A stretch of DNA of 64,000 nucleotides. Source: an uncultured Kiritimatiellota bacterium (GTDB taxonomy: Bacteria > Verrucomicrobiota > Kiritimatiellia > RFP12 > DVOR01). The notes beneath the pieces were generated by a model. The model saw only the letters and a list, made by a program, of their open reading frames with translations, did no database searches and had not been told where the DNA came from. The translations under genes and the position numbers were made by a program. Shown in pieces: positions 24,366 through 62,614 of this stretch; positions within the stretch are counted from its first letter, which is position 1, and each line of letters starts with the position of its first letter. Location: positions 10,450 to 74,449 of the forward strand of contig CALXSE010000002.1 of the NCBI GenBank assembly GCA_944391085.1, given 5' to 3'.

Positions 24366-24385
24366 AGGAACTCCAAAAGGTGCCA

Positions 24386-25568: not shown

Positions 25569-26061
25569 CGCTTCAATTCCTCCAAAACCCGGGTGGGACG
25601 TTCTGCGCCATCAGCATTGCCAGGTCTCCCTAGTTGCCCAATCATTTGCGACTCTGAAGCTCGCCCACGCGATTCTTGGGGTTGGAAGCCCCCATAACGC
25701 CACCTTGGCGCAACGGGATTTCGCCAAAGTCAATTGCCTCAAATCTGCCATCGGTTCTGCACTTGATGGGCCTATCCTCAATTCCACTTGAATGGGATCG
25801 CCCTCAAAGGGAAACGCGGCCCCTCGAACCCTTTTCGCACAGGTCTAGGCCCTGAGCAAAACAAAAGCGAAGGGCTTGGCGCAAAGCGCCGTCGGGGTCG
25901 GCGATTCTGCGGCATGTTGGCATCGCCGCGGCGCCGACTCGATTCGTGGGGATAACTTTGCAAGACGGCCCCTGGTGAGGCTTCCCCTGGTTCTCGCGCA
26001 GGGCGGCCTCTCTTCTCATGGAGCGATGCACGGCTCTCTCCTCATGATTTGGCCATGCGCC

Positions 26062-31872: not shown

Positions 31873-31918
31873 TCGCCCCTTTCCCCCACCCCACCAAGAA
31901 AGTTCAGGTCTCACAGCA

Positions 31919-33709: not shown

Positions 33710-33730
33710 GTGACCCAAGGAGAACCCTCC

Positions 33731-35626
33731 ATGTTCAAGCATATCACTCTGGGTCTTGCCCTGCTGATGGGGGTCTGCGCCTTTGCGCAGGCGCCCCAGG
33801 CGGCAAAGGCCGACAAACCGAAGGTGACGTATGACAAGGACGCCGTCTATTATTTTGACGGCAAGCCCCTGACCGCCGACGAGGCCGTCACCCGCGTCAA
33901 GCGCGCCATCGCGGAGGCCCAAACCGACCTCGTGTTCATCAAGGACGCTATCTCGCAAGGCCAAAAGACGGCCGTCGACGGAACGCCCCTTGAGAAAATC
34001 AAGACGAAGCTCGAAGTGCAGCTCCAGCTTGGCGAGGACTTCCTCAACAGCCAGGCCAACTCCTTCGAGGGGGTCAATTCCATCGTCCAGCTCGTCAAGA
34101 TGCGCCGTCAGGTGCTCCAGGCCAACGACAAGGCCGTGGCCGAGCCCAATGACTCGCACATCCGCCTGCACGGTTCTTACATCCACATCACCAACGGGTT
34201 CATGACGACCGACGACACCCCCGGCGCCGTGAAGGAAGAGTACGAACCCTATAACTACTACGTGAACGACAAGGGCGAGCGCCAGCTCAAGTTCCCCGAC
34301 CTTCTCGGCAAGCAGATCGACCTGCCCACCGTCAGCGGCGTCATCCACTCCCATCAGGTTGGCGATTGGCAGCTCATGGTCAAGCGAATCAAGGATCTCT
34401 GGAGCTCCACCGGCATCATGGGCTTTACCCTCAAGGATCCCGAGCCGCCGCGCGCCAATCCCGACCCGCTCCCGTCTGCCCATCCCGACACGGTGTTGCC
34501 TTTCGGCATCAGCCAGCTGGTCATGATCGCCGTCTGCCTTCTGCTCATCTACCTGGCCATCGTCAAGGAGTTCGAACCCCTTCTGCTTCTGCCGATCGGC
34601 TTCGGTGGCCTGCTCGCGAACATCCCTTACGCCGGCATCACCGCAGGCCCCCTGCTGGATACGATGGGCAACGTCGTCGAGCCGGGTGGCTTTCTCTACT
34701 ATACCTTCGATTTCGGCGTGAACAGCGGCCTCTTCCCCATCCTCATCTTCATGGGCGTGGGCGCGATGACCGACTTTGGCCCGCTGATTGCCAATCCCCG
34801 CACGGCCCTCCTCGGCGCCGCCGCCCAGCTGGGCATCTTCACGGCCCTCCTCGGCGCGCTCGCCCTGACGCTCTGCTTCGACAGCATCAACTTCTTCATC
34901 ACCGATGCGGCCTCCATCGGCATCATCGGCGGCGCCGACGGCCCGACGGCCATCTGGCTGACCACCAAACTTTCGCCGGACCTGCTTGGCGCGATTGCCG
35001 TGGCCGCCTATTCCTACATGGCCCTCGTCCCCGTCATCCAGCCCCCGATCATGAAGCTCTGCACCAACAAGGAAGAGCGCCTCATCAAGATGAAGCAGCT
35101 CCGCCCCGTCACCAAGATGGAAAAGGTGCTCTTCCCCATCACGGTGCTCCTGCTCTGCGCGGCCTTCCTGCCTTCCGCCGCCCCGCTCATCGGCGCGGTC
35201 ATGCTGGGCAACCTCGCCAAAGAATGCGGCGTCGTCGATCGTATCTCCGACACGATGGCCAACAGCCTCATCAACATCGTCACCATCCTGCTGGGGCTTT
35301 CCGTGGGCTCCAAGCTCGCCGCCGAGAAGTTCCTCACCTTCGAGACCCTCGGCATCCTCGTCCTTGGCGTCGTCGCCTTCGGCGTGGGCACCGCTGGCGG
35401 TGTCTGGATGGCCAAGTTGATGAACCTTTTCGTCAAGGACAAGATCAACCCGCTCATCGGCTCCGCCGGCGTTTCCGCCGTGCCGATGGCCGCGCGTGTC
35501 TCCAACAAAGTCGGCCTGGAATACGACAAGACCAACTTCCTGCTGATGCACGCGATGGGCCCGAACGTCTCCGGCGTCATTGGTTCCGCCGTCGTTGCCG
35601 GCGTCCTCTTCTTCTGCTGCCGCTGA
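33731..35626 (+). CDS. oadB: Na+-translocating decarboxylase beta subunit with about 240-aa N-terminal extension
   Basis: The ATG at 33731 follows AAGGAGA. The conserved [21 protein letters not shown] falls at about residue 279 instead of about 40. The extension begins with a signal-peptide-like [21 protein letters not shown]. Confidence 0.85.
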
Positions 35627-35643
35627 TTCGCGGCGACGCAAAA

Positions 35644-35673
35644 GGCCACCCGAGCGATCGGGTGGCCTTTTTT
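35644..35673 (+). terminator. Intrinsic terminator of the oad operon
   Basis: GGCCACCCGA-gcga-TCGGGTGGCC followed by TTTTTT. Confidence 0.85.
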
Positions 35674-35785
35674 GTTTGTCTTTCCATCCTTGCAAATCGA
35701 AAAAGCTTGTTTAATGAAGCGCAATGTGATACACTAATGGAGTTTTCTTTTCCTACACACAACCACAACCCCACCAAAATAAGAT

Positions 35786-47825: not shown

Positions 47826-48722
47826 ATGAAACCGATGTTGCTGATTTGGCTGAGTTTCCGGGGCGTCTCCGAGTTCATCGCCACGCGTGGGCAGGTGGAG
47901 CGGTGGGCGGCGGAGGTGCCGGAACTCGACGTCGTCCACGCCGAGACGCAGGAGGCGTTCGTCCGCAACCTTTCCAAGGCCACTTACGTGATGACCTTCA
48001 CCTTCTCGGAGGCCTGGCTCCCGTTGACCTACCGCGTGAAATGGCTGGCCACGCCCGCCGCCGGGCGCGAACTGCTCGGCGCGCGCATCCCGGAACGCAT
48101 CCGCCTGACGCACGGGACGTTCCATGGCGACCTGATGGCCGAGACGGCGGTTGGGATGTTGTTGGCCGTTCGACGCGGGCTCCTGCCCGGGCTGGGGCTG
48201 TGCGGGGCGGGGGAGCCTTGGCCCGTCCATGTGCCGGGGCGATGCGCCGTCGCCGGGAGCAAGGCCGTCATCCTGGGCTACGGCCACATCGGCAAAACGG
48301 TCGGCGCGAAACTTGAGGCCCTCGGCGTGCGCGTCGTGGGGGTGACGCACGCGAACCTGGGTGATTTGGACGCGCTGCTGGCCGACGCGGACGCGCTCGT
48401 CCTGGCCCTGCCCGCGACGCCCGAGACCGACGACATCCTCGATGCGCGGCGTTTGGCGCTTCTGCCCCGCCACGCCGTGGTCATCAACCTGGGCCGCGGC
48501 AACGCCATCGACGAGAACGCCCTGTGCGCGGCGCTCGAGAGCGGGGCGCTCCATGCCGCGTTCCTCGACGTCTTCAAAGAGGAGCCGTACCCGGAGGCCG
48601 GGCCGCTGCGCCGTGCGCCGCGCTGCTTCCTGTTGCCGCACGCTTCCGCCTTCGCGCCGGATTACCTTGACCGCGCCTTCGCAGAATGGCTGAGGGTTTA
48701 CCGCAGTGGCTTCCGCGCGTGA
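47826..48722 (+). CDS. D-isomer-specific 2-hydroxyacid dehydrogenase family protein
   Basis: NAD-binding motif ILGYGHIGKTVG, with RGNAIDE and HAAFLDVF (catalytic Arg/Glu/His region). Confidence 0.85.
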   Translation: MKPMLLIWLSFRGVSEFIATRGQVERWAAEVPELDVVHAETQEAFVRNLSKATYVMTFTFSEAWLPLTYRVKWLATPAAGRELLGARIPERIRLTHGTFHGDLMAETAVGMLLAVRRGLLPGLGLCGAGEPWPVHVPGRCAVAGSKAVILGYGHIGKTVGAKLEALGVRVVGVTHANLGDLDALLADADALVLALPATPETDDILDARRLALLPRHAVVINLGRGNAIDENALCAALESGALHAAFLDVFKEEPYPEAGPLRRAPRCFLLPHASAFAPDYLDRAFAEWLRVYRSGFRA

Positions 48723-49533
48723 TTCCTCGGCGCAGGGCCTCCCGCTGATCAAGGAAGAGGCTCTCTGCCTGAACGCCCGGCCCTTTTCCAAGACCTCGCA
48801 GATGGTCACGTGGCTGACGGCCGGGCATGGGCGCGTCACCACGCCGATCAAGGGCGCACAGCGGCCCAAGAGCGGCTTTGTGGGGCGCTACGACGTCGGC
48901 TACACCTGCGAGCTTGTCTTCTACGCCCGTGAACGCAACGGCGTCCACCACATCCGCGAATGCACGCCGCTGGCGTTGCGCGAGGGGCTTCGCCGCACGT
49001 GGCGCGGCGCCGAGGCCGCCGCGTATGCCTGTGACCTGACCCTGCGCACGGCGCAGCCCGGGATGGCGAACCCGGCGCTCTACCGGGCGTTGAGCGGGCT
49101 GTTGGACGTCCTGCCCGCCTGCGCGGCGCACGAGGCCACGCTCGCCCTGCTGTGGTTTGAGGCCACGTTGTTGTATGCGGTGGGCCTGGGGCCGGACTTT
49201 TCGCCGTGCGCCGCCTGCCCGGCCACGCCGCGGCGGCTCTTCTCGGTGGAAGAGGGGCGTTTCGTCTGCGAACACCGCCCTTCTCGGCTCCGCACGCCCC
49301 CCACCCTGACGCTTCACGACGACATCCCCGCGCTGTACCGCCGCTTCCTTGCCCATCCCCTTGCCGAGACGCTCGCGGAAGCCCGCGCGGCGGATCGCCG
49401 CGACGACCTGGGGCGGCCGGAGCCCTTCCCCGGCGTCTTCGGGCTGCGCCGGTTTCTCGGCGTCTTCCTCACGGCGCATCTCGACCTGCCGCCGGGGCCG
49501 CGCCGCACTGTGCTTGACCTCCTGATAGGATGA
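48706..49533 (+). CDS. recO: DNA repair protein RecO
   Basis: OB-fold N-terminus (EEALCLNARPFSKTSQMVTWLTAGHGRVTTPIKGAQRPKS) and a Cys-containing central motif (CAACPAT...FVCEH). The start is uncertain: GTG at 48706 or CTG at 48745. Confidence 0.8.
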   Translation: MASARDSSAQGLPLIKEEALCLNARPFSKTSQMVTWLTAGHGRVTTPIKGAQRPKSGFVGRYDVGYTCELVFYARERNGVHHIRECTPLALREGLRRTWRGAEAAAYACDLTLRTAQPGMANPALYRALSGLLDVLPACAAHEATLALLWFEATLLYAVGLGPDFSPCAACPATPRRLFSVEEGRFVCEHRPSRLRTPPTLTLHDDIPALYRRFLAHPLAETLAEARAADRRDDLGRPEPFPGVFGLRRFLGVFLTAHLDLPPGPRRTVLDLLIG

Positions 49534-49537: not shown

Positions 49538-49546
49538 TGCTATACT
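49538..49546 (+). promoter_or_regulatory. Extended -10 promoter TGCTATACT (leaderless configuration)
   Basis: Ends 6 nt before the ATG at 49553. Confidence 0.45.
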
Positions 49547-49552: not shown

Positions 49553-50953
49553 ATGATTACCTCCGCGGAGAGCGAGAGCGTTGTGTTCACCGGCGTGAGC
49601 GGCTGTTTCGCCGGCGCGGCAACGCCGCGTGCCTTTTGGAAGGCGACCCTGCGCAAGCAGTGTTTCCTGGAGCCTTACTCCGACGCCGACGCGGGGCGGT
49701 TGGTCGAGGCGCTCCTGCCCGGTTGCCGCGCCCCGGAGGTCTGCGCCGCGTTGGGCGAGAACTTTGCGTGCCGGGCCGACCACATCCCTTTGCCGGCCGA
49801 CCTCGGCGTGGGCGACAATCCCGATTTCTGGTTTGCCGCGCAGCTGATCCACGACGCGCTGACGGACGCCGGGCTTGCACCTTCGCCCGGGGAGGGTCGC
49901 ACCGACCGCCTGGCGCTTTACGTGGGTTATGACTCCGCCTTCAACCCGGCGGCGATGAACTGGATGTGGCACGCCGCGGCCATCGGGCAGATTGTCGGCA
50001 CGTTGCAGCGGTTCTTCCCCGGCGCGACCTTCGGGCAAATCAAGCGGCTCCGCGAGGAGCTCGCCGACACCTTGCCCCTGCTCAAGCGCCGGCAACTGGA
50101 ATTGGCGCGCGGCGAAGGCGTGGTGCGCCTGCTCGCGCAGACCTTCGGCGCGTGCGACATGGCCTGCCAATGCGCGATGGGCGAGGCCACCATCTTCGCG
50201 GGGCTGGAATCCGCGGCGAACGCATTGCGCCTGGGCCAGTGCGACGTGGCCGTGGCGGTGGCCCTTCAGCCGCCGATCCCCCCCACCCAGCTGGCCGGCG
50301 AGGCCGCGCTCACCCCCTTCTCCCCGCTTCGCGCGCTCACCCCCTTCTCCTCAGACCCGAAGGGGACGCTCCCCGGCGAGGGCGGCGCGGCCTTTGTGCT
50401 CCGCCGCCTGAGCGACGCCCGGCGCGAGGGGACGCGCCTTTACGCCAAACTTCACGGCAGCGCGGTCGTCTCTGGCCTGCCGCCCGCTGACGGCGGGTTG
50501 GAGGAGAGCCTCCGCCGCGCCCTCCACCGCGCCCTGCGCCGCTTGCCGAACGGGTTCCGCGATGTGGATTATTGGGAGATGAACGCCTCCGGGATCGGCG
50601 AGGAGGACGAGGCCGAGCGCGCGGTGCTGAGGCTCATGACCGGCAACCGCGGCGCGCACATCCCGCTTTTGGCCCTGGGCTCGGCGAAGACGGCCTTCGG
50701 CAACGCCTTCACGGCGGCGGGGGCGCTCGGCGTGCTCAAGGGCGTGCTGGCCGTCGGGCACCGTGTGCTCCCGCCCTCGGTGACGCCGGTGGACGATTTC
50801 TCGCCCGCCCTCGCGCCGGATCAGGCGTGCTACTGGGTGCAGGAGGCCCGCCCCTGGATCGCGGCCTCCACGCGCAAGCGGCGGCTGGCCGTTTCCACGC
50901 TCTCGCGTTTCGGCAGGGCCGGGGCGGCGACGCTCGAGGAGATCACGGGGTGA
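49553..50953 (+). CDS. Ketosynthase-like protein with substituted catalytic triad (probable pseudo-KS)
   Basis: It aligns by eye with the type-I PKS KS over its full length. The His motifs read VDYWEMNASG and GSAKTAFGNAF (both His replaced by Asn). The nucleophile position appears to be Glu in an ungapped register. Confidence 0.75.
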   Translation: MITSAESESVVFTGVSGCFAGAATPRAFWKATLRKQCFLEPYSDADAGRLVEALLPGCRAPEVCAALGENFACRADHIPLPADLGVGDNPDFWFAAQLIHDALTDAGLAPSPGEGRTDRLALYVGYDSAFNPAAMNWMWHAAAIGQIVGTLQRFFPGATFGQIKRLREELADTLPLLKRRQLELARGEGVVRLLAQTFGACDMACQCAMGEATIFAGLESAANALRLGQCDVAVAVALQPPIPPTQLAGEAALTPFSPLRALTPFSSDPKGTLPGEGGAAFVLRRLSDARREGTRLYAKLHGSAVVSGLPPADGGLEESLRRALHRALRRLPNGFRDVDYWEMNASGIGEEDEAERAVLRLMTGNRGAHIPLLALGSAKTAFGNAFTAAGALGVLKGVLAVGHRVLPPSVTPVDDFSPALAPDQACYWVQEARPWIAASTRKRRLAVSTLSRFGRAGAATLEEITG

Positions 50954-50966
50954 AGGAGGCCCGCTG

Positions 50967-53900
50967 ATGGCGCTGGAACGTTCCGAGGGCGTGCTCTGTC
51001 TGATCGGCGCCGAGACGCCGCAGGCGTTGGCCGAGACCATCGCGCGGATCCTCGGCTTCGTCACCAAGAGCCGCGGCGTCCGCCTGATCGACGTGGTCTA
51101 CACCGCCACCTGCGACGCGCGCGGCAGGCAGTGCGTGGCCGGCCTCTGGGTGGCGAGCCTGGAAGAGATGGCGCGCAAGCTCCGCTTCGCCCTCGAGGCC
51201 CTGCGCAGCGGCCGCACGCGGACCCGCGAGAAATCCGGCGTCTTCTTCACCACGCATCCGCTGGCGCTCCACGGCGGCAAACTCGCCTATATCTTTCCCG
51301 GGACCGGGAGCTTCCATCTCGAAATGATGCGGGATCTTGCGCTTACCTTCGACGGCGTGCGCGAGCGCTTCGATGACATGGAGGAGGCCTTCTCGGGCTT
51401 CTGCGACGTCGCCTCGCCCTCCGAGTGGCTCTTTTCAACATCCCCCGAGCATACCCTGCCGCTCAGTGCCTCGCAGGCCTTCCTGCCGCTTCTGGCCTCC
51501 GCCTCCACCTATCTCGCCAGCAAGGTCTTCGCCGACCTCCTCAAATCCGTCGGCGTGCGGCCGGATGCCGTGGGCGGCGTGGGGCTCGGGGCCTTTTCGG
51601 CCTTCCACGCCACGCACCACAATCCCAAGTTCCGCCTGGTCCAGATCCTCCGCGATGCGGGCCGGATGCTCCTCCGCCTCGGCGCGGAAGGCCGGGACCG
51701 TGCCCCATGGGTGCAGCTTACCGTCTCTGGCATCGAGGTTTCCCGCCTTCGCGAGTTGGCGCTGCGCGACCCCGCCCGCGTCGTCCTCACCCAAATCCTC
51801 ACGGACGACGATTGCGTTATGGCCATTTCCCCCGACAAGCAGGCCGAGGTCGAGATCGCCATCCACAACGGCGGCGGCGTCTCCGTGGCGGAGTCCCTCC
51901 CCGCCCCCTTCAACTCCGGCCACGGCGACGCGCCCATGCGCCGCCGCCTGCGAGACTTCTTCGTCAAATACGTCAACTGCGAGCCACAGATCCCGTTTTA
52001 TTCCTGCGTCGACGCCGCGCCCATGGGGCGCTCCACCTCCGCCGTCGTCGACGGCCTCATGGCCCAGATGATGGAGCCGCTCGATTTCCGCGCCATGATC
52101 CGCAGGATGTACGACGACGGCTGCCGCATCTTTGTCGAGGTCGGCGCGCGCGGCCTGCTCTCCCCTCTCATCGCCAAGAATCTTGCCGGGCGCGACCCCG
52201 TGGCCGTCATCCCCATGCACATTCTGCATCGCTCCGGCGGCGTCCAGGTTGGGCAGGCGCTGGGGCTCCTCGCCGCAAACGGCGCCCCCATGGATTATTC
52301 CGGGCTTCGTTTCTTCGCCCACGCGCGCCGCCTTGACTTTTCCGTGCCGGTCCACGAAGAAGGCGCGGCCGCCCTTACCGTCCACCTGTCGCGCAGCCTC
52401 CCGGCCATCCGCCCCGAACTCATCGACGCCCAGCGGATCCTCTCCATGGTCGCCGCCGTGGGCCCCGAGGAGACCGGCGCCACCCACCTGCACGCCCTCC
52501 CCCTGGAGATCCCCGCCGGCGGCCTTGAATGCCCCCTCCTGCGCGGCGCCCAGGAGCTTGCCCGCACGGCGACCACCCTCGAGCTCCAATGCGTCCTGCG
52601 TCTGGCGGATTTCCCGTACCTCAACGACTACGCCATCGGCTCCTCCAACATCTCCCTGCGCGACCCCCAAACGCGCGGGCTCACCCTGCTCTCCGTCCCC
52701 TCCGGCCTCGAAATCATGGCCGAGGCCGCCCACCGCCTCTTCCCGGATCTCTCCCTCCGCCGCATCGAGACGCTCCGTGCCCCGCACTGGCTCGCCTTCG
52801 ACTTCGGCCGTTTGGGGCTCCGCCTCAGCGCCTCCGTCCTCAGCGATCCGACCCCCTCCGGCAACCGCACCGTCGCCGTGCGCCTCTGTGAGGATCGGGA
52901 AGAGGCCCCCCGCGTCGCCATGGAGGCACAATTCGTCCTCAGCCCCACCATTCCGGAGCCCCCCGAGGACCTCGCCGCGCAACCCCTTGCCAGCCCCGTC
53001 GACGTCGGGTGGAAAGCAGACGACATTTATCCCGCCCGCCTCTTCCAGGGCCCCCTCCTGCGCAATATCCGCGCCGTCGTCGGCTGGGGCCTCAACGGCC
53101 TTGACTACGAAATCCGCATCCCGTCCCGTGCCGCGCTCGTGCGCCGTTCCCGCAACCCCCTCTTCTGCGCTCTCCCGCTTTTGCTCGACGCCGTCGTCTC
53201 CGGTTTTCCCCTCTGGCGCTCCCACGAGCGTTTCCACGGCGCCATCTCCCTCCCCTTCCGCTGCAAGGCCATCCGCTACTATGCCGCCTGGCTCCCCGAA
53301 GGCACCCGCCTGCGGTGCTCCCTCCGCCTCACCAACGTCACCCCGCGCACCTTCGAGGTCGACATCCTCGCAATGGACGCCACCGGCCACCCCGTCCTCC
53401 GCGTCGAAGGCTGGGAAGAGGTCGGCGGGCGCGCCGGCCAGGCCCTCCACGACTTCGTGATGAACCCCTCGCGTTACTTCATCACCCAGCCCCTTCCGGA
53501 TTCGATTCTCCCCAAGAGCGCCAGGGACGGCGTGGACAAAACCATCGTCGGCGCCCTTTACGTCAACGCCAACCCGGACTTCTTCATCGCCAACCACGGC
53601 CTTTGGCTCAACGCCCTCGCCGCCGCCGTCCTTACCCAGAACGAGCGCGAGGACTTCGCCCAGATGGGCGGCGTCGCCCCGCGCCGCCTCGAATGGCTCC
53701 TCGGCCGCACCGCCGCCAAAGAGGCCGTCCGCCGCCTTCTCCTGGAGGTCTTCCGCCTCTACGAGCCTTCCGCCGACATCGCCGTCTGGAAGGACGAGCT
53801 CGGCAAACCCCACCCCCTCGGCGACTGGCAGCAGCAGATCTCCGCCCCCATCGACCTCTCCATCGCCCACACAGCCGGCCTTGTCATCGGCGGCGCCACC

Positions 53901-54263
53901 ACCCATGGCCGCCTCGGCTTCGACGTCGAATCCACCTCCCGCGACCTCACCGAGGACTTCCTCCGCGGCGTCTTCACCCTTGAGGAGCAGGAGCTTGCCA
54001 CGCGCAGCGGTGACGGCCCCATCGCCGTCCTCCGCTTCTGGTGCGCCAAGGAGGCCATCTCCAAAGCCCTCGGCACCGGCATCCGCTTCGCCCCCACAGA
54101 CCTGCGCATCCGCGCCTCCGACCCCGCCACCGGCGAGCTCGCCATCGAGCTCCTCGGCGCCTGGGCCGAGAATTTCCCCAACCTCCGCGGTAAGCGCATC
54201 CCCATCAAGACCGCCGTCCTCTACGACCATGCCATCGCCTGTTGCCACCTGCGCGACCCCTGA
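50967..54263 (+). CDS. AT-like / PKS-dehydratase-like / Sfp-type 4'-phosphopantetheinyl transferase fusion protein (1098 aa)
   Basis: GAAGGAGG SD upstream. YIFPGTGSFHLEMM is AT-like, but GHSxGE reads GGVGLGAF. FPYLNDYAIG corresponds to the DH LxDH motif with His replaced by Tyr. The C-terminal PPTase motifs are DELGKPHP, LGFDVES and FWCAKEAISKALG. Confidence 0.7.
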   Translation: MALERSEGVLCLIGAETPQALAETIARILGFVTKSRGVRLIDVVYTATCDARGRQCVAGLWVASLEEMARKLRFALEALRSGRTRTREKSGVFFTTHPLALHGGKLAYIFPGTGSFHLEMMRDLALTFDGVRERFDDMEEAFSGFCDVASPSEWLFSTSPEHTLPLSASQAFLPLLASASTYLASKVFADLLKSVGVRPDAVGGVGLGAFSAFHATHHNPKFRLVQILRDAGRMLLRLGAEGRDRAPWVQLTVSGIEVSRLRELALRDPARVVLTQILTDDDCVMAISPDKQAEVEIAIHNGGGVSVAESLPAPFNSGHGDAPMRRRLRDFFVKYVNCEPQIPFYSCVDAAPMGRSTSAVVDGLMAQMMEPLDFRAMIRRMYDDGCRIFVEVGARGLLSPLIAKNLAGRDPVAVIPMHILHRSGGVQVGQALGLLAANGAPMDYSGLRFFAHARRLDFSVPVHEEGAAALTVHLSRSLPAIRPELIDAQRILSMVAAVGPEETGATHLHALPLEIPAGGLECPLLRGAQELARTATTLELQCVLRLADFPYLNDYAIGSSNISLRDPQTRGLTLLSVPSGLEIMAEAAHRLFPDLSLRRIETLRAPHWLAFDFGRLGLRLSASVLSDPTPSGNRTVAVRLCEDREEAPRVAMEAQFVLSPTIPEPPEDLAAQPLASPVDVGWKADDIYPARLFQGPLLRNIRAVVGWGLNGLDYEIRIPSRAALVRRSRNPLFCALPLLLDAVVSGFPLWRSHERFHGAISLPFRCKAIRYYAAWLPEGTRLRCSLRLTNVTPRTFEVDILAMDATGHPVLRVEGWEEVGGRAGQALHDFVMNPSRYFITQPLPDSILPKSARDGVDKTIVGALYVNANPDFFIANHGLWLNALAAAVLTQNEREDFAQMGGVAPRRLEWLLGRTAAKEAVRRLLLEVFRLYEPSADIAVWKDELGKPHPLGDWQQQISAPIDLSIAHTAGLVIGGATTHGRLGFDVESTSRDLTEDFLRGVFTLEEQELATRSGDGPIAVLRFWCAKEAISKALGTGIRFAPTDLRIRASDPATGELAIELLGAWAENFPNLRGKRIPIKTAVLYDHAIACCHLRDP

Positions 54264-54335: not shown

Positions 54336-54364
54336 TTGACCTTGCGCCGCGCCGCGCCTATACT
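54336..54364 (+). promoter_or_regulatory. Sigma-70 promoter TTGACC-17 nt-TATACT for ilvC
   Basis: Near-consensus hexamers with optimal spacing, 46 nt before the ilvC ATG. Confidence 0.6.
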
Positions 54365-54409: not shown

Positions 54410-55516
54410 ATGGCAAAGATCAAATTCGCCGACGAGATCGAGAACATCACCACCCGCAAGGAGTTCCCCCTTGCCAAGGCCCAGGAGGTCCTCAAGGATG
54501 AGGTCGTCGCCGTTCTCGGTTATGGCGTGCAAGGCCCCGCCCAATCCCTCAACATGCGCGACAACGGCATCAACGTGATTGTCGGCCAGCGCAAGAGCGC
54601 CAAGAAGAACAGCTCCTGGCAGCGCGCCATCAAGGACGGTTGGGTTCCCGGCAAGACCCTCTTCGAGATTGAGGAAGCCGCCGAAAAGGGCACCATCGTC
54701 ATGATGCTCACCTCCGACGCCTCCATCAAGCCCGTCTTCAAGCAAATCAAGAAGCACCTCACCCCCGGCAAGGCCCTCTACTTCTCCCACGGCTTCGGCT
54801 GGCAATACCGCGACCTCACCGGCGTCGAGGCCCCCGAGGGCGTCGATGTCATCATGGTCGCCCCCAAGGGCTCCGGCACCAGCGTCCGCCGCAACTTCCT
54901 CGAGGGCGTCGGCATCAACAGCTCCTACGCCGTCGCCGTCGACGCTACCAAGAAGGCCCTCCAGCGCACCCTCGCCCTCGGCATCGCCGTCGGTTCGGGC
55001 TACCTCTTCCCCACCACCTTCGAGCGTGAGGTGACCTCCGACCTCGTCGGCGAGCGCGGCACCCTCATGGGTTGCCTCCAGGGCATCCTCAACGCCCAGT
55101 ACACCGTCCTGCGCAAGCATGGCCACAGCCCCTCCGAGGCCTTCAACGAGACCGTCGAGGAGCTCACCCAATCCCTCATCCGCCTCGTCGACGAAAAGGG
55201 CATGGACTGGATGTACTCCAACTGCTCCGCCACCGCCCAGCACGGCGCACTCAAGTGGGCCCCCGAGTTCGAAAAGGCCACCAAGCCCGTCTTCGAGAAA
55301 CTCTACAAATCCGTCGCCGACATGACCGAGGCCAAGGCCGTCGTCCGCGACTGCGGCCGCAAGGACTACAAAGAGCGCCTCGAGGCCAAGCTCGCCAAGA
55401 TCCGCGACAGCGAGATGTGGCGTGCCGGCCAGGCCGTCCGTTCCCTCCGCCCCCATGAGGGCGCCAAGGCCAATGCCGCCACCGCCGCCGGCGTCGGCGG
55501 GCGTGCCGCCAACTGA
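54410..55516 (+). CDS. ilvC: Ketol-acid reductoisomerase
   Basis: Contains VLGYGVQGPAQSLNMRDNG (NADP site) and GCLQGILNAQYTVL. It is class-I length plus a short Ala-rich tail. Confidence 0.95.
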   Translation: MAKIKFADEIENITTRKEFPLAKAQEVLKDEVVAVLGYGVQGPAQSLNMRDNGINVIVGQRKSAKKNSSWQRAIKDGWVPGKTLFEIEEAAEKGTIVMMLTSDASIKPVFKQIKKHLTPGKALYFSHGFGWQYRDLTGVEAPEGVDVIMVAPKGSGTSVRRNFLEGVGINSSYAVAVDATKKALQRTLALGIAVGSGYLFPTTFEREVTSDLVGERGTLMGCLQGILNAQYTVLRKHGHSPSEAFNETVEELTQSLIRLVDEKGMDWMYSNCSATAQHGALKWAPEFEKATKPVFEKLYKSVADMTEAKAVVRDCGRKDYKERLEAKLAKIRDSEMWRAGQAVRSLRPHEGAKANAATAAGVGGRAAN

Positions 55517-56044: not shown

Positions 56045-59000
56045 ATGAAACACAAAGCCCTCCGATTCTCCTTCGGGACGGTGCTGGCCCTTGTGGCCGC
56101 ATATGGAAACGCGGTCGCGGCTCAGACTTCCCTCTCGTCCGAGAACGCCTCTACCCATACCCCCACCCCCCCCCCGCGTGTAATTGAAGTTGCCTCCCAG
56201 CCCCCCGCCGCGCGGGTGTTGGGCAACGGCGTCTTCACCGCCGGGAGCACCGGCCAGACGGTGGACGCCATCACGCGCGTGGCGTTGCCTTCGCGCCGCA
56301 TCACCTTCTCGCTGGATGCCATGCTCATGGGCTACACGCTTGATGGACAGACCTTTGGCGCCGTTCCCCCGAACCTTACCCTCTCCAGCGTCACGCTCTA
56401 TGATTTGACAGACCTGGGCACGGGCGGCACGCTTGGCGCGGCCAGCCTGCCCACCGTCTCGCTCTACGGCAATCAGGGCACGAAACTGATGGGCACCGCC
56501 AACCGTACGGGCACGGGCGAGCCTGTCCTCGTACGCCTGGCCGATGGCTCGGAGGTCAGTCTCACGCCCGTGACCTACACCTTTGTCGAGCAGGATATCA
56601 CGCTGGAAGGCTCCACGGACTACCGCCTGACGCTCAACGCCGCCGGCGTCACCCCTATCCTGCCGCTCTTCACCAACGCCGCCACCGAAGCCGACTCCGG
56701 CTTCGACCTGACGGACGTCGCTGGCTATGCGCCCTTCCTCTCCTTCACCGGCACGGTCTCCGTCACGGACGTGGCCGTCCGCGCCGAAGGCGAGGCCTCC
56801 TTGGCGGACTTGCTGGGCTCGGCCTCCTTCTCGGATTCCGCCGACCGGATCGTCACGGTAACCTTGGCCCAGGGCGCGCGGTTGACGCTTGACCGGTCCG
56901 TCACGGACGCCACGCTGGTCTTCGAGGCCGAGGGCGCGGCCGCCGTCGCCTTCGTGGAGACGGCCAGCCTGACCTGCCCCTTTGTCTTCCGCAACGCCAC
57001 CGACGTGGACAACGGCCTCATCACCCTCTCCGGCCCGTGGGACGATGCCGCGACGAACGACGACAGGCAACTCTGGCAACCGGACTCCCTTGCCATCGAC
57101 TGCGACGTGAACGTGGCCTCCCCCTTGCCCCTTATCGTCAGCGGATGGTTCCAGCAAAAGTCCGTCCGCGTCTTCCCCGGGCGCACCCTGCGCCTGACCA
57201 GCGAGGCCGAGACTGCCGCCCGGCTTCCCTTCGTCGCCCTCACCGCACCCACCGCCAACCTCGCCTTCGCGGGAACGGGCAAGTCCGGCGCCCTTCCGGA
57301 GAAATACCGCGATCTTTTCTTCGGCACCTCCGGTACCGTCACCCTTGAGCGCCCCGTGGCCTTCGCTTACGCAGGCAACGAGACCGACGCACAGGGAGCC
57401 CGCTTCCGCATCGGCAACCGGGGCGACGCGGGTTACGCCTTCACCCTGAACGTGGACGAGACCTTCTCCTCCACGCCCCGTTTGGTGCTCGGCGGCAAGA
57501 GCGGCTCCGCCACGCTGAACCTCCGCGGCGACGAGGCGACCATCTACGCGGCGGTCATCAACTTTGACACCGGCTCCACGCTGACGCAGAAGGCCGGTGC
57601 GCTCACTCTCGGCAATGCCGACTGGGCCACCAAGTTCGTCGGCGACTCCGCCACCCTCGTCTTCGGCGACGGCGACACCAAGAACGGCCTCGCCACCGCC
57701 ACGCTCTTTGGCATCCCCTACGGCGTCACCAGCGGCGGTGTGACCACCGACTATCGCGGCGCCGCCGACCTCACCGTCAAGGCCGACGCCACCCTCCTCC
57801 TCACCGAATGTGATTTGCCCGCCGTCGCCGGCACGCCCGACTACGCCCTCTACCCCGTGGGCAAGCGTTCGCTGAAGGTTCAGGGCGGCACCGTCAAGGC
57901 CAACACCGGCGCGGCTGTTACAATGGTCTTCGAGAACCCCGAGCCCCAGGCCGCCCCCATCGCCGTCGCCCCCGTCCCCGGCCTCGAGGTCATCGGCTCG
58001 GCCAATCTGGAATCCTCCGACACCACCAACTCCTCCCTTTCGCTCGACGCCCTCAAGGGCAACGGCGCCGTCACCCTCTCCGGCGTGGTGCACATCGATT
58101 CCGTCCGCCTCGGCGAGGACGACACGCTCACCTTCGACCTCCGCCGCGGTGAGGGCGACGTGGACGACGCCATCGGCGGCTCCCGTGTTACCATCGACGC
58201 CGTCACCGGCACCGCCGGCACCGTCCGCTTCGGCCTCCTCGGCACGAACGGCACCACCGGCGAGCAGACCGTCATCGACACCCTCCTCGCGGGCGGCTTC
58301 ACCGGCACCGTCGGTTTCCTGCTGCCCGACTACACCCGCCTCGACTTCGAGGACACCCAGCTCCCCGAGTTGCCCTTCACCCTCGAGGTCCAGCCCGGCC
58401 AGACCGTCGTCATGCGTCTGGATCAGTACGCCGACGCCGACATCCTCTGGCCCGAGGACTGCTCCAACGTCAAGCTCGTCCTCGTCGAGGCCGGCCCCTT
58501 CGGCGGCGAGGCCTCCCTCCCCGCCTGGCCCGAGGGCGTGAAGATGGAGTTCCACCGTTACGACGATTCCTCCGATGGCCACTCCGCCCTCCCCGGCGAG
58601 GACTACGACGCCACCCGCAACGACGACGGCCTCACCATCGACCTCACCTGGAAGAACCCCGTCCTCACCGGCAAGGTCGCCTATGTCGACGTCGAGTTCA
58701 ACGGTGATTCCTACAACACCGGCTGGTTCCGCCTCGGCGACGCCAACGGCATGCTCCGTGGCGACGGCAACATCATCGGTTCCGACGAAATCCTGACGGA
58801 CGGCGATGACTTCACGGCGGCCTTCAACCCGGAGGGTCAAGGCGTGAACCCGCGCCGGCAGCCTTATATCCCCGTGGACGCGCTCCCGGCCTACCCCGAC
58901 GCCTGGAGCATCGTCGCGCGCGTGACCGCCGCCGAATTCACGAAGACCGTCATGTTGGCCATCGGCGCCAACTACAAAGACGTGACCGGTGGCACGGGCG

Positions 59001-62000
59001 ACGACTTTTCAGGCCGCGACACCCTCGTCCTCGCCACCGGCTCGATGAAGGATCACGGCGACGGCGGCACCGCCGGCGCGGACGATGACGACGACAATGC
59101 GGAGGACACCATCCGCCTGTGGCTCATCCGCGGGCGGGATCTCTACGGCGAAAACCCTGCGGTGCCGACGGAGTACCTCGCCCAGGCCTCGCTCCCGCAG
59201 GTCACGGAAATGCCCCACCTCTACACCATCACCTACGACAACCGCCACATCCAGGTCTACGTGGATGGCCACTGCCTGATGGACACCACCCTCCCCGAGG
59301 ACATCAACCTCGGCCCCGGCCTTCAGATCGGCAAGCTCATGGGCGGCGCCAACATCGATGGCGACCACCTCCCGATCGGCGATGCCCTGGCCGAGCAGTT
59401 CAAGCCCGTCAACAGTTCTGCCGGCGACGGCGTCGTGGACTTCATCCGCGTTTATCGCGGCATCCTCTCCGACGCGGCCATCGACCAGCTCGTCCGTGAG
59501 AATCCGTACATCCACAAAGACCCGGGCGGCGCCGCCTCTAATCACCGTGATGTCCGCTATGTCCGCGTCATCAACGGCGGCGCGGACGAACCCTGGGTGC
59601 AGGAAGGCGCATGGCAGCGGCAGCACCTTAGCCTGGGCGGCGATCTTATCTGGAGCAACGACGGCACGTACGCGGAGCCCGCCGAGGGCGCCATCGTGGT
59701 GGTCCAGTGCCGCGAAGGCAACGCCACCCTGCGTGTGAATACGCAGAAGGGCGGACTTTTCCCCTCCGCCGACCGCACCTATTCCATGCTGATCGTCACG
59801 GGTAAGGACATCGATACGCTTGCGCAGGACGAAGGGTCGGACGACAACTGGATCGGGGGAACCCTTACGATCGCGCCCTACGACGACCCGTCCACGCCCG
59901 ACAACGAGTGGTACACCGAGCGGACGGACGATGGCGCGTTCCGCTATGGCGTCCTGCGCTTCTCCGGCGGCGCCGGGCAGCGCGTCAATCAGGGCCATAC
60001 AACGGTGGGAACCTTCTTCAATGAGGGGCACTCGCTGGCGGGCTACGTCCTGACGCACGCCGTCCTGCACGGCTCGGTCATAGACTTGGCTTCGGACGGC
60101 GTGGAGATCCGCCGCGGCGTGAACGCCACGTTCCGCGCGGACGACCTCATCACGCGCGGCTTTGACGGCGAGACCTTCCTGCGCCAGCTCACGGGCCCCT
60201 TGAGCGGCACGGAGTTCTATCATTACGTCCGTCCTGCGGGGGATGTCTACGGCTACGGTTCCGTCATCGGGAATGCCGACATCTCGTCCAGCAACCAGCA
60301 GACCTCGGAGTTCGTCTGGGTGCCGACCTTCGACAACCGGGAGAGCGAATGGAAGCTTGACGACGTGACGCGCGCCAACAGCGAGGTGCTTAAGCGCGAG
60401 ACGGGCTTCGACAGCAGCACGGTGCAGTTGCCGCAGACAGGCCTCTTCGTCCGCGTGGCGAAGGTGCCGGGGCGGCTCTACCTGGAACTGAACGAGGACG
60501 CCGTCCAGCGCGATGGCGCGCTCTCCGAGCAGGCGTGGTACCGTTATGGCTATCACAACGACGTCGCGGCCGAGACCGTCTCGCACATGGAGCCCGAACC
60601 GATGCACGAGGGCGACTTCGAGAAGGCGGTCGCGCTCTCCATCCGCCTGGAAAACGGCGAGACCAGGACGCTCCGCGCGGACAGCGCCGCCAATGGGCTG
60701 ACCGTCAATGAGCTGACCATCGAAAAGCCCAAGGAGGACGACGGAACGGCCAACGAAACCCTCCAAATCCTCCCGCAGGATGGGACGGGATACAGTCTCA
60801 AGGTCATGGAGGCCGTCTCCACCGACCGCCGTCTGGAGGTCTATTCCGCGCAGGGTTCCGGATCCGAGGCCGACGCGACGGGCGCGGACGGCGTGCATCT
60901 GGCTTACGAGACCGATCCCGGCACCCAGATGAACAATGGCGCGAAGCTCTACGGCGTCGGGACCGGCGTCTACGTGGCCGGCAACACGACGGTGAACCAC
61001 CCGTTGGACGGCTCCTCCATCGCCCGCATCGAGAGCGCGCACGCGATCCGCTTCGCGGCGGGACAGGAGCTGTCGGCGACGACGGTGGCGGCGGCCAAGA
61101 ATGCGAGCGTCGAGCAGACGGGGGCGGAGAACGCCTTCCGTGCGGCGGCGATTGAGCTGGCCCAGGGGAGCCGCCTGACCTTTGCGTCCAATGCGGCGAC
61201 GGTCGACGGGGCCATCACCCTCACCGGCGACGCCACGATTGAGGGCACGGGCACGACGGCGACGCTGACCCCCACGGAGGGCATCCGCGGCCAAACCGGC
61301 GCGGAAACGCTGACGCTTGACGCGGCCGATGGCGCCGACTGGAAGTTGCTGAACAGTGACGTGGGCGCCCTGCCGCTGACGAAGACCGGCACGGGCGTGG
61401 CGGACATCGCCGCCGACCTGCCGCCGAACGCGGGCTTCGTGGATGTCCAGGAAGGCACGCTCCGCGTGGCCACGGGTCTCGCGGGCGAGGGCCAGGCCGT
61501 GGGCCAGGCCAGCCTGAACGTGGAGACGGGCGCGACGCTCGCCCCGACCTCCGGCACCATCGCGGAGGACGTGCTGGCGGAGATTCCCGCCGGGCAGACC
61601 GTCTCGGGCTTGGGCCGCATCGACGGCACCCTGCGTCTGGAGACGGACGCGACGCTCGACGCCCGTGAGGCGAACGAGAGCTCCCTCTCCGTGCGCGACG
61701 TGCAGACGGATGGCCTGACGGCCCTGGCGGACGTGGACGTCTCCCTGCCCGATGGCGCCTCGGACGGCCTCGTTTTCCTCCGTTCGGACGAAACGACCCT
61801 GAACTGGGCGGCCCGTGCCCGGTTGCTGGCGACCGACTCCTCCGCGACCCGTTGGGACGTGTTGCTGCGGTACCGCCCCGGACAGGTCCCCGAAGGCACG
61901 GACTATCTGGTCGGCGTCGCCGGCCTGAGCGTGCCGAACCCCGACGGCCTCCCCGAGGATATTCGCCCCGGCGACGACGACCTGGTGGACAACGAGTGGC

Positions 62001-62614
62001 CCGATGGTTCCGGCGATGACCCCGCCGTCGACGATGAGGTGACCGACCAGATCCAGGGCGGCGGCAACGTCGCCGGCAAAGCGGAGGGATACACGATGGC
62101 CAACCATAAGTGGCTGATGGCCCCCGACATCGCCAACGCCTACGCCTGTTTCGGCAACGTCTGGGTCCTCGCGCCGCGCACGACCGACAAGCAGCGTGAA
62201 GACTACGCCACGCGCGACCTGCTGATGGCCTATGAGTTTGGCATTTCGCGCATGGCCTTCGTGGAGGGCGGCACGCGCATCGTGGTCGAGGCCAAGCTCC
62301 GCAACGCCCTCAAGGATTGCCCTTACTTCACGGACGAACAACTCCAGGGCGCGGGCGCGTTCAAGCCTTCCTACCTGCCCGGCGTGGGACTGACGATCGT
62401 CGGCCCCAACGGCCCGCTTGCCGGCGTGACGGAAATCACGGACGAGGCGGTGATCCGTGGCTACGGCTTCTCGCCGGACATGCCCACCACCGAGGTCGCC
62501 CGTTGGTTCCTGGTGCCCTACAACGAGGCCAACTTCCCCGCCGGGGAGTCGGCGCACCTGACGGTCAGGGCGATCCCGCCGTCCGAGCCGGCGGCGCCCA
62601 CCGCGGCGGAGTGA
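56045..62614 (+). CDS. Giant secreted surface protein (2189 aa) with LamG/concanavalin-like domain and autotransporter-associated beta-strand (PATR) type repeat
   Basis: Signal peptide MKHKALRFSFGTVLALVAAYGNAVAA. LamG-like block about 58670-59510 (YVDVEFNGDS...IRLWLIRG...IQVYVDGHCL...DFIRVYRGILS). PATR-like LTKTGTGVADIA...VDVQEGTLRVA at about 61370-61470. No C-terminal beta-barrel or sorting motif seen. Confidence 0.85.
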   Translation: MKHKALRFSFGTVLALVAAYGNAVAAQTSLSSENASTHTPTPPPRVIEVASQPPAARVLGNGVFTAGSTGQTVDAITRVALPSRRITFSLDAMLMGYTLDGQTFGAVPPNLTLSSVTLYDLTDLGTGGTLGAASLPTVSLYGNQGTKLMGTANRTGTGEPVLVRLADGSEVSLTPVTYTFVEQDITLEGSTDYRLTLNAAGVTPILPLFTNAATEADSGFDLTDVAGYAPFLSFTGTVSVTDVAVRAEGEASLADLLGSASFSDSADRIVTVTLAQGARLTLDRSVTDATLVFEAEGAAAVAFVETASLTCPFVFRNATDVDNGLITLSGPWDDAATNDDRQLWQPDSLAIDCDVNVASPLPLIVSGWFQQKSVRVFPGRTLRLTSEAETAARLPFVALTAPTANLAFAGTGKSGALPEKYRDLFFGTSGTVTLERPVAFAYAGNETDAQGARFRIGNRGDAGYAFTLNVDETFSSTPRLVLGGKSGSATLNLRGDEATIYAAVINFDTGSTLTQKAGALTLGNADWATKFVGDSATLVFGDGDTKNGLATATLFGIPYGVTSGGVTTDYRGAADLTVKADATLLLTECDLPAVAGTPDYALYPVGKRSLKVQGGTVKANTGAAVTMVFENPEPQAAPIAVAPVPGLEVIGSANLESSDTTNSSLSLDALKGNGAVTLSGVVHIDSVRLGEDDTLTFDLRRGEGDVDDAIGGSRVTIDAVTGTAGTVRFGLLGTNGTTGEQTVIDTLLAGGFTGTVGFLLPDYTRLDFEDTQLPELPFTLEVQPGQTVVMRLDQYADADILWPEDCSNVKLVLVEAGPFGGEASLPAWPEGVKMEFHRYDDSSDGHSALPGEDYDATRNDDGLTIDLTWKNPVLTGKVAYVDVEFNGDSYNTGWFRLGDANGMLRGDGNIIGSDEILTDGDDFTAAFNPEGQGVNPRRQPYIPVDALPAYPDAWSIVARVTAAEFTKTVMLAIGANYKDVTGGTGDDFSGRDTLVLATGSMKDHGDGGTAGADDDDDNAEDTIRLWLIRGRDLYGENPAVPTEYLAQASLPQVTEMPHLYTITYDNRHIQVYVDGHCLMDTTLPEDINLGPGLQIGKLMGGANIDGDHLPIGDALAEQFKPVNSSAGDGVVDFIRVYRGILSDAAIDQLVRENPYIHKDPGGAASNHRDVRYVRVINGGADEPWVQEGAWQRQHLSLGGDLIWSNDGTYAEPAEGAIVVVQCREGNATLRVNTQKGGLFPSADRTYSMLIVTGKDIDTLAQDEGSDDNWIGGTLTIAPYDDPSTPDNEWYTERTDDGAFRYGVLRFSGGAGQRVNQGHTTVGTFFNEGHSLAGYVLTHAVLHGSVIDLASDGVEIRRGVNATFRADDLITRGFDGETFLRQLTGPLSGTEFYHYVRPAGDVYGYGSVIGNADISSSNQQTSEFVWVPTFDNRESEWKLDDVTRANSEVLKRETGFDSSTVQLPQTGLFVRVAKVPGRLYLELNEDAVQRDGALSEQAWYRYGYHNDVAAETVSHMEPEPMHEGDFEKAVALSIRLENGETRTLRADSAANGLTVNELTIEKPKEDDGTANETLQILPQDGTGYSLKVMEAVSTDRRLEVYSAQGSGSEADATGADGVHLAYETDPGTQMNNGAKLYGVGTGVYVAGNTTVNHPLDGSSIARIESAHAIRFAAGQELSATTVAAAKNASVEQTGAENAFRAAAIELAQGSRLTFASNAATVDGAITLTGDATIEGTGTTATLTPTEGIRGQTGAETLTLDAADGADWKLLNSDVGALPLTKTGTGVADIAADLPPNAGFVDVQEGTLRVATGLAGEGQAVGQASLNVETGATLAPTSGTIAEDVLAEIPAGQTVSGLGRIDGTLRLETDATLDAREANESSLSVRDVQTDGLTALADVDVSLPDGASDGLVFLRSDETTLNWAARARLLATDSSATRWDVLLRYRPGQVPEGTDYLVGVAGLSVPNPDGLPEDIRPGDDDLVDNEWPDGSGDDPAVDDEVTDQIQGGGNVAGKAEGYTMANHKWLMAPDIANAYACFGNVWVLAPRTTDKQREDYATRDLLMAYEFGISRMAFVEGGTRIVVEAKLRNALKDCPYFTDEQLQGAGAFKPSYLPGVGLTIVGPNGPLAGVTEITDEAVIRGYGFSPDMPTTEVARWFLVPYNEANFPAGESAHLTVRAIPPSEPAAPTAAE
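56166..56175 (+). repeat. Homopolymeric C10 tract inside codons 41-44 of the giant gene
   Basis: Counted directly: ...ACC CCC ACC CCC CCC CCG CGT... encodes TPTPPPR. Confidence 0.9.

Follow-up and report, generated by a model that had tools for sequence, protein, structure and literature searches.

Why should a bacterium keep a large protein in which the catalytic centres of a polyketide synthase (PKS) have been lost and the phosphopantetheinyl transferase (PPTase) at the C-terminus has been retained? The question is raised by a pair of genes from an uncultured Kiritimatiellota bacterium, analysed here within a stretch of 64,000 nucleotides of contig CALXSE010000002.1 (GenBank assembly GCA_944391085.1, positions 10,450 to 74,449 of the forward strand), which we refer to as the window and number from its first letter. 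The first gene (49553–50953, + strand) codes for a ketosynthase-like (KS-like) protein of 466 aa, a pseudo-ketosynthase, and the second (50967–54263, +) for a 1098-aa fusion that combines a KS-AT linker, an acyltransferase-like (AT-like) domain, a dehydratase-like (DH-like) domain and a Sfp-type PPTase (PPT in domain strings). The answer that we favour, and hold to be probable by a modest measure, is that the pair represents a KS|AT-DH-PPT subunit orphaned by the loss of its partners, which has also given up its chemistry and is kept as a PPTase acting in trans, its most plausible role being that of main holo-ACP synthase in primary metabolism (ACP, acyl carrier protein).

Domain make-up of the two proteins

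The order AT-like, DH-like, PPTase had been proposed in an initial annotation, which was made by eye, and is confirmed by Pfam, NCBIfam, a family profile, and an AlphaFold2 (AF2) model compared by Foldseek. Residues 1–100 (50967–51266, +) align to the post-KS linker of intact relatives and are weakly matched by the Pfam family CurL-like_PKS_C, a KS-AT linker, at 13–71; the position of this linker at the start of the protein indicates that the break in an ancestral KS-AT-DH-PPT gene came after the KS part and before the linker. The AT-like domain (residues 101–445; 51267–52301, +) was delimited by profile, Foldseek and alignment, while the Pfam match to Acyl_transf_1 at 108–407 (E-value 0.0037) falls under the curated cut-off. 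NCBIfam returned fabD (1.8e-11) and matched models of type I PKS and PfaA in part, and the family profile, run against PDB sequences, matched the CurL KS-AT didomain (1.7e-24, residues 10–446), FabD (to 1e-16) and AcpS (1e-9). When the AF2 model (pLDDT 79.6) was compared to PDB folds, KS-AT-DH-ketoreductase (KR) modules were found at 4.7e-32, with about 866 columns aligned to the KS-AT-DH-KR module CalA3, and isolated AT domains gave a template-modelling (TM) score of about 0.77.

A poorly conserved and, judged from pLDDT and conservation, largely disordered interdomain linker (residues 446–525; 52302–52541, +) leads to the DH-like region (residues 526–830; 52542–53456, +), which is assigned by Pfam (PS-DH at 689–815, 1e-7), AF2 and Foldseek. 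Its predicted secondary structure consists of two units of beta-sheet plus central helix, that is, a double hot-dog, and three loops around the former active site are modelled with low confidence. The PPTase follows at residues 860–1098 (239 aa; 53544–54260, +), a confidently modelled alpha/beta domain identified by Pfam ACPS (983–1070, 1.6e-14) and hhalign, with a weak match to 4PPT_N (0.09). The central regions might have turned out to be unrelated to AT and DH domains; the PS-DH, FabD and AT-fold matches given above tie them to both. The larger protein thus has an AT fold with sequence homology to FabD and a double hot-dog fold, and its partner has thiolase-fold homology to KS enzymes, being recognised by Pfam as ketoacyl-synt (1.7e-13) and Ketoacyl-synt_C (1e-13).

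Loss of the PKS catalytic residues

A scan of species-representative genomes yielded at least 299 relatives, and 72 loci were returned and analysed. Motifs were read by alignment to intact relatives, and the family columns refer to 73 sequences, the 72 loci plus the window. In the AT-like domain of the window GQGSQ has become GTGSF, and the nucleophile elbow GHSxGE reads G-V205-G206-L-G-A, so that the replacement of His by Val and of Ser by Gly is seen as had been described. The region of the second histidine, HAFH, which the initial annotation had called unrecognisable, can be recognised as P-F-N316-S-G, with His replaced by Asn. The residues equivalent to S92 and H201 of FabD are therefore G206 and N316 in the window, and both catalytic residues are kept only in nine deep-branching loci. 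R229 aligns with R117 of FabD, the ligand of the malonyl carboxylate, and is conserved in 69 of the 73 sequences.

In the DH-like domain LxDHxxG reads LND-Y555-AIG, confirming the exchange of His for Tyr, and the aspartate D741 is kept. Across the family the pair formed by the His of HxxxGxxxxP and the Asp of DxxxQ/H is broken, as position 555 is Y, F, C, N or A and never His, and D741 is found in 53/73. The domain carries instead a family-specific motif, W750-RSHE(R/K)FxGAISLPF-R765, with H753 present in 62/73. Several residues that are near-invariant in the family (WRSHE(R/K)F, R229, N316) are without counterpart in the intact relatives. Fully invariant columns number 37 out of 208 in the PPTase, 15 out of 305 in the DH-like domain, 14 out of 345 in the AT-like domain and 2 out of 80 in the linker 446–525.

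The KS-like protein of the window has E211 in place of the catalytic Cys and N344 and N384 in place of the two His, and has kept Lys379. Profile alignment to intact KS domains by hhalign (probability 100%, 6e-85) is ungapped across the active site and sets Cys opposite E211. A first MAFFT alignment had suggested that the Cys was kept in the string DMAC, just ahead of a 6-residue insertion; this was overturned by the deep-family consensus and the profile-profile alignment, which point to E211. Of the 63 KS-like proteins of the family, 62 lack the Cys, L043 being the exception, and the Cys position is taken by E, D, A, G, S, T, I, L, M or N. The claim that both proteins derive from a PKS and that the catalytic residues of AT, DH and the partner KS have gone is thus borne out in the window by alignment. 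Its wider form, that every PKS catalytic residue that could be placed is gone, needs qualifying, since D741 is kept in the window and degeneracy is clade-specific: the nine deep-branching loci keep those of the AT and one of them also the KS set.

The two genes belong together. A KS-like gene lies directly upstream of the large gene in 65/72 loci; in two of the others upstream sequence is lacking, and in five the genes at that place are unrelated. The distance from the KS-like stop to the start of the large gene is −22 to +18 nt across the 65 loci, with many 4-nt overlaps.

An invariant phosphopantetheinyl transferase

The core motifs of the PPTase had been described as intact, and all ligands of CoA and Mg2+ indeed map onto Sfp of B. 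subtilis (hhalign probability 91%, spanning Sfp residues 45–185), with K75, H90, D107, E109, E151 and K155 corresponding to K947, H968, D986, E988, E1029 and K1033. Both the CoA 3'-phosphate ligands (K947 and H968, for K75 and H90 of Sfp) and the Mg2+ ligands D986 and E988, together with W1025, K1028, E1029 and K1033, are invariant in 73/73 sequences, which span 32–100% identity. The same is true of all positions checked (GKP, H968/T969, G984/D986/E988, F1024-W-C, K1028-E-A and K1033). By its motif, W1025-CAKEAISK, the domain conforms to the WxxKEAxxK subtype that is defined and named for Sfp-type enzymes in PMC6042109.

One of these positions sets the family apart. Where the Lys of GKP (K947) is invariant here, intact PKS-integrated relatives have for the most part Arg, or else some other residue (P0046, P0070–P0080 and P0084 versus P0081–P0218); this change at a residue that contacts CoA goes along with the loss of PKS function.

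Carrier proteins and a second PPTase

What, then, could such a PPTase modify? The related loci were read at about ±10 kb per genome, some 1.2 Mb in all, and no ACP was detected by tblastn, phmmer or an ACP hidden Markov model (HMM) in the 64-kb window or in the 72 loci. An ACP that had been overlooked within the 1098-aa protein was also considered. In the relative P0051 the ACP is an insertion exactly at the AT-DH linker point; the window protein has no ACP there, and residues 465–504 of its linker have a pLDDT below 50 and are predicted to be disordered. No hidden ACP was thus found in the linker, the window or the 72 loci, and the earlier statement that neither protein nor the locus holds a carrier stands.

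KR, ACP, KS-AT and thioesterase genes are absent within ±10 kb of all 72 modules, and no KR was found in the window proteins by Pfam or NCBIfam. An AcpS HMM, run over the window and the same views of the 72 loci, matched the 73 module ORFs only, with no stand-alone AcpS or Sfp nearby.

Distribution, selection and family tree

The proteins of the 72 loci are 33–94% identical to that of the window, and all are encoded by full-length open reading frames (ORFs) of about 1100 aa. Taxonomy was taken from the record titles (6/72 read just "bacterium"), most of which name metagenome-assembled genomes (MAGs) of Kiritimatiellia, Lentisphaerae or Verrucomicrobia from animal gut, rumen, sediment, biofilm and groundwater. 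Three contigs are titled Akkermansia muciniphila (L043), Akkermansia sp. (L048) and Agathobacter rectalis (L016), and these are probably mis-binned or mislabelled MAGs. A word-indexed protein search gave about 50 full-length homologues from MAGs of Kiritimatiellia and Ca. Spyradenecus; the latter is placed under Lentisphaerota at NCBI, and relatives are called Kiritimatiellia in other records. Source annotations are generic ("4'-phosphopantetheinyl transferase superfamily protein", "polyketide synthase dehydratase domain-containing protein"), and literature searches on the family, on Kiritimatiellia PKSs and PPTases and on PKS pseudo-enzymes found no description of it. This agrees with the initial annotation, to which no described system of this make-up was known; in the sources searched the family does not appear as a well-annotated one.

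The ratio of nonsynonymous to synonymous substitution rates (omega) against L001, at a synonymous divergence (dS) of 0.32, is 0.07 for the AT-like domain, 0.11 for the DH-like domain, 0.08 for the PPTase and 0.07 for the KS-like protein, or about 0.1 overall; we rely on this pair only, as L002, L019, L021 and L004 suffer from dS saturation and codon bias. The dead domains are under purifying selection as strong as that on the PPTase.

A simple neighbour-joining tree, built without support values and rooted with intact relatives, divides the family into four clades. Clade I, which holds the window, has E/D-N-N/H at the KS positions, V/I-G-N in the AT and Y, F or C at 555, with D741 kept. The nine loci of clade II retain GHSxGE, the Arg and the AT His, with A/S-H-H in the KS. 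In clade III the DH Asp is lost as well, and in clade IV both AT His are lost, while most members keep the AT Ser (F-S-N) and two loci have Gly or Arg in its place. On the simplest history, the common ancestor had already lost the KS Cys and the DH His, and the AT dyad then disappeared independently at least twice. Such variety of lost residues from clade to clade is what one would expect once selection for PKS chemistry has ceased, and it bespeaks relaxed selection on that chemistry versus constant selection on the PPTase.

One locus of clade II deserves mention by itself. L043 (7568–13258) has a complete KS set, C-H-K-H, an intact AT and a FabG-like short-chain dehydrogenase/reductase (SDR) gene directly upstream. 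From its residues it may still be enzymatically active, and it is an evolutionary intermediate.

Intact relatives

An exhaustive search of representatives returned 1909 clusters at E ≤ 1e-30, a large superfamily in which the degenerate family forms a small branch. Catalytic columns were read in the best 150 of the 1909, and most of these are intact, with H-S..H in the AT, H..D in the DH and D-E-K-E in the PPTase. They come in two forms, a fused KS-AT-(ACP)-DH-PPT protein of 1550–1990 aa and a split AT-(ACP)-DH-PPT protein of 1100–1390 aa; the latter includes the metagenomic P0083, P0091 and P0152, which are ACP-less and of the length of the window protein. In L075 a separate KS gene directly precedes the AT-DH-PPT gene. 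The upstream partner ends in a KR in L075, L076 and L073 (the last from Streptomyces), with PP-binding detected in L076 and L073. The partner in L073 is a full KS-AT-ACP-KR protein, in which the Pfam PP-binding match is weak (1717–1763) and a motif search found no GxDS. The genes near intact members include an alpha/beta-hydrolase, glycosyl- and methyltransferases (L073), and TauD and sulfotransferases (P0052 locus). Set against these relatives, the losses in the present family become visible: the ACP-KR partner, a small ACP-like protein, the alpha/beta-hydrolase and the tailoring enzymes.

The small protein is encoded by homologous ORFs of about 105 aa directly after the PPT gene (L073 14604–14921, L075 6553–6873). 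They carry an ACP-like DLxLES(I/V), with Glu for Asp before the Ser, and match Pfam PP-binding marginally, so that by sequence they may be atypical discrete carriers; no counterpart was found at the Kiritimatiellia loci.

Gene neighbourhood

All flanking ORFs of the 72 loci were clustered for recurrent neighbours, and the only one that we interpret is panB (Pantoate_transf, 1.2e-113), which immediately precedes the module, in the same orientation, in 22/72 loci, namely in clades II and IV and in two basal members of clade I. PanB catalyses the first step of the pantothenate/CoA pathway, and CoA is the donor substrate of PPTases. The order panB, KS-like, AT/DH/PPT is probably ancestral, the subclade of the window having moved the module next to recO. 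An EEP-family phosphatase and a radical S-adenosylmethionine gene were dismissed as too sporadic (7 loci each). Conserved recO/ilvC synteny was likewise rejected, since only recO and the genes upstream of it are shared, and only in L001. The acpS gene of E. coli belongs to an rnc-era-recO-pdxJ-acpS operon, a likeness to the recO-adjoining module that we treat as coincidence. In L001, which is 94% identical, a polyvalent-protein gene of mobile-element type (ART-PolyVal, LPD3; 13400–14600) stands where the window has ilvC, and the junction downstream of the module has been rearranged or invaded there.

Within the window, only the KS-like and the 1098-aa genes lie between recO (48706–49533) and ilvC (54410–55516), so that the reported lack of ACP, KR, enoylreductase and thioesterase genes in this interval is correct. 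The KS-like gene ends with TGA (50951–50953). The 1098-aa gene has its own Shine-Dalgarno sequence, as had been noted, GAAGGAGG at 50952–50959 (+), 7 nt ahead of the ATG, and the gap between the genes is 13 nt rather than the 14 nt first given. Because this Shine-Dalgarno sequence overlaps the upstream stop codon, the 1098-aa gene is translationally coupled to the KS-like gene.

A candidate extended −10 element, TGcTATACT (49538–49546, +), was found by eye 6 nt ahead of the KS-like ATG, while a consensus promoter scan made no call before this gene, where TTGACC (49514–49519) sits 21 nt off. These signals suggest that transcription of the pair may start independently, within the last part of recO, and that the mRNA may be leaderless, given an ATG 6 nt past the candidate −10 and without a Shine-Dalgarno sequence. 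A promoter-like site before ilvC, TTGACC-17-TATACT (54336–54364, +; 1 site versus 0.1 expected in the scan), marks the downstream limit of the two-gene unit. The hexamer pair TTGACC/TATACT is common to the fronts of ilvC (17-nt spacer) and of the KS-like gene (21-nt spacer, TGc extended −10).

Both flanks are ordinary chromosome, with birA-nudix, a leucine-rich repeat protein, DJ-1, rpoN, a 2-hydroxyacid dehydrogenase and recO upstream (and farther upstream RNase R, dnaE, MatE and a type II secretion ATPase) and ilvC downstream. Beyond ilvC, a 2189-aa ORF (56045–62614, +) has an N-terminal signal peptide, is rich in T, G, A and D and is without Pfam match; from its sequence, the product is probably a giant protein, either secreted or exposed on the surface. 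It had come into view as a partner of the module through the intact relative P0052, which has a 2113-aa gene without Pfam match upstream, and was ruled out by its signal peptide and low-complexity, secreted-type composition. A stretch of lower G+C content (22000–26000, 0.58–0.59 versus about 0.67 elsewhere), with a pyruvyl-transferase gene at 26961–28610, could be an island that was acquired horizontally or serves polysaccharide synthesis. Three ORFs of 812–1263 aa without Pfam match (3886–7113, −; 11634–14072, +; 31904–35695, −), each overlapped by opposite-strand ORFs, are either genuine genes or high-GC antisense artefacts.

An orphaned subunit kept for its PPTase?

In the scenario that we favour, the pair would descend from a multi-protein, iterative type I PKS in which it formed the KS|AT-DH-PPT subunit alongside a separate partner of the order KS-AT-ACP-KR. 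The biosynthetic partners would have been lost, as would the subunit's own condensing, acyl-transfer and dehydration chemistry, and selection would keep the Sfp-type PPTase for the transfer of 4'-phosphopantetheine from CoA, in trans, onto a carrier encoded elsewhere. The likeliest target would be AcpP of the fatty-acid synthase (FAS), which would make the enzyme the main or only holo-ACP synthase of the lineage. The panB link, the wide vertical conservation, the lack of biosynthetic neighbours, the invariant PPTase and the precedent of PcpS (see below) all argue for such a housekeeping role. The KS-like protein, the AT-like and DH-like domains and the PPTase would probably form one complex, and as KS, AT and DH are all ACP-interacting folds, our preferred guess is that the dead body serves as a platform that binds or docks ACP or CoA. 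We infer in this way an active PPTase with its target and housekeeping role, and likewise complex formation and a scaffold or docking role.

The initial annotation had seen here a pseudo-enzyme scaffold built around a dedicated PPTase. A dedicated enzyme is not indicated, because the wide vertical conservation, the lack of a PKS or non-ribosomal peptide synthetase neighbour in 72 loci and the panB link would point to primary metabolism. The non-catalytic, PKS-derived body is upheld, and the term scaffold undersells it, with an omega as low as that of the PPTase and near-invariant motifs of its own.

Several observations weigh against the orphaned-subunit explanation. A scaffold does not readily explain an omega of about 0.07 on some 1300 dead residues, nor the near-invariant motifs, and a plain PPTase needs just about 230 aa. 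Five loci are without an adjoining KS-like gene, and the panB link is absent from the window and most of its clade. Clade II has an intact AT, and L043 a complete KS set and an SDR; acyl chemistry may thus persist in some members, and function may differ within the family.

The strong constraint is the main reason to consider that the KS-, AT- and DH-like bodies are a neo-functionalised enzyme with a new active or ligand site of acyl-, malonyl- or CoA-type, used for a reaction or for sensing, of which the PPTase is one part. We think this unlikely and yet worth serious attention. Candidate sites would be W750-RSHE(R/K)F with H753/E754 in the second hot-dog and R229/N316/S115 in the AT pocket; the dead domains equal the PPTase in omega, the near-invariant residues have no counterpart in intact relatives, R229 occupies the position of FabD R117, and the three poorly modelled DH loops look as if they might await a partner or ligand. 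Hot-dog folds readily evolve thioesterase or decarboxylase activity, which counts in the same direction. The candidates are, however, not fully invariant (H753 and D741 in particular), the old catalytic positions vary widely by clade, as fits relaxed rather than redirected chemistry, and genes that would supply a substrate or handle a product do not co-occur with it. A more improbable alternative is an inert subunit of chain-length-factor type, with a dedicated PPTase that primes an unlinked ACP-bearing PKS, polyunsaturated fatty acid (PUFA) synthase or secondary-lipid synthase. Intact relatives always work with a separate ACP-KR partner, dead KS-like partners such as the chain-length factor (CLF) and KS0 are established in active PKS and PUFA synthases, and there is weak similarity to PfaA/PfaB models, with PfaB matches in PDB; but PKS, ACP, KR and thioesterase genes are absent within ±10 kb of the 72 loci, unlike in every intact relative examined, the recurrent neighbour is panB and not a lipid or PKS gene, and with AT and DH dead besides the KS the module would have nothing to contribute beyond its PPTase. 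That it is a decaying, functionless remnant of a biosynthetic cluster might be suggested by three domains without their catalytic residues and by the disappearance of all partner genes, and is effectively refuted: at least 299 species representatives conserve it over a range from 94% down to about 33% identity, the ORFs of about 1100 aa are intact in 72/72, the PPTase motifs are invariant and omega is 0.07–0.11.

There is also a bolder reading, which we put forward with considerable doubt. The dead body would then be more than passive, a megasynthase chassis remade into a novel machine around a PPTase, either as a platform for apo-ACP capture, quality control or regulation that would tie CoA supply (panB) to holo-ACP, or through a relocated site (H753/E754; R229/N316) acting on malonyl- or acyl-ACP; either way the protein would be the essential, sole PPTase of much of the Planctomycetes-Verrucomicrobia-Chlamydiae (PVC) lineage.

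If the orphaned-subunit explanation is correct, widespread PVC bacteria (Kiritimatiellia-type organisms of gut, rumen, sediment and groundwater) make their holo-carriers with a PPTase that is fused to, and co-evolving with, about 1300 dead PKS residues, a clear natural case of a megasynthase turned pseudo-enzyme. The preserved stages, from one genome with a complete KS and a clade with an intact AT to the fully dead state in the clade of the window, could be used to study domain loss and repurposing. As a sole PPTase the protein would be an essential, lineage-specific target. There is also a consequence for annotation, as genome-mining tools may score the pair as type I PKS-like, though it is without carrier and, in most clades, without condensing, loading and dehydrating residues.

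Comparison with known systems

The domain order had originally been likened to that of the enediyne PKSs (PKSE; SgcE, CalE8), single-chain, self-phosphopantetheinylating enzymes of the order KS-AT-ACP-KR-DH-PPTase. The likeness consists in the iterative type I PKS and in the Sfp-type PPTase that follows the DH at the C-terminus. It does not extend further, as the module has a separate KS gene and no ACP or KR and has lost its catalytic residues, so that it is not a PKSE. The intact proteins nearest to it, KS|AT-DH-PPT or KS-AT-DH-PPT, are themselves without KR; they are subunits of multi-protein iterative PKSs, in which ACP and KR reside on a separate partner.

Inactive PKS domains that are kept for structure are well known, for example CLF/KSbeta, KS0 and the AT-docking remnants of trans-AT PKSs. 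They likewise have a thiolase or AT fold without nucleophile, retained as a structural or partner-binding element. These work, however, inside active assembly lines with ACPs, whereas here all PKS domains are inactive and no assembly line is nearby.

PcpS is the sole known PPTase of P. aeruginosa. Together with the cyanobacterial Sppt it has the role proposed here, action in trans on an ACP of primary metabolism, and the same set of CoA and Mg ligands. Both are stand-alone enzymes of about 230–250 aa, whereas the present PPTase is fused to about 860 dead AT/DH residues and coupled to a dead KS, all of which are constrained. According to PMC5686131, PcpS modifies all three ACPs of P. aeruginosa. 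The alpha-subunit of the fungal type I FAS is similar in having a PPTase fused to a megasynthase body, but that domain acts in cis on the ACP of its own, active synthase and is of AcpS-type (PMC6042109).

The closest likeness is to PKS-integrated PPTases (SAV_7361 and SACE_2343, Streptomyces P0053–P0066, and P0083, P0091 and P0152), which share the order (KS)-AT-DH-PPT and the WxxKEAxxK motif. Homology extends over the full length, up to 1e-190 for the split, ACP-less proteins of about 1100 aa, and the same KS|AT-DH-PPT split is seen in L075. Bacterial representatives such as SAV_7361 and SACE_2343 have rarely been reported and their products are still unidentified (PMC6042109); the present family may offer a handle on why integrated PPTases occur in such PKSs. 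These relatives keep the KS Cys and His, the GHSxG and His of the AT, the His and Asp of the DH and the partners in their clusters, whereas the module described here has lost the chemistry of all three domains and every partner. We therefore regard it as a kind of PKS-integrated PPTase that is undescribed in the literature searched.

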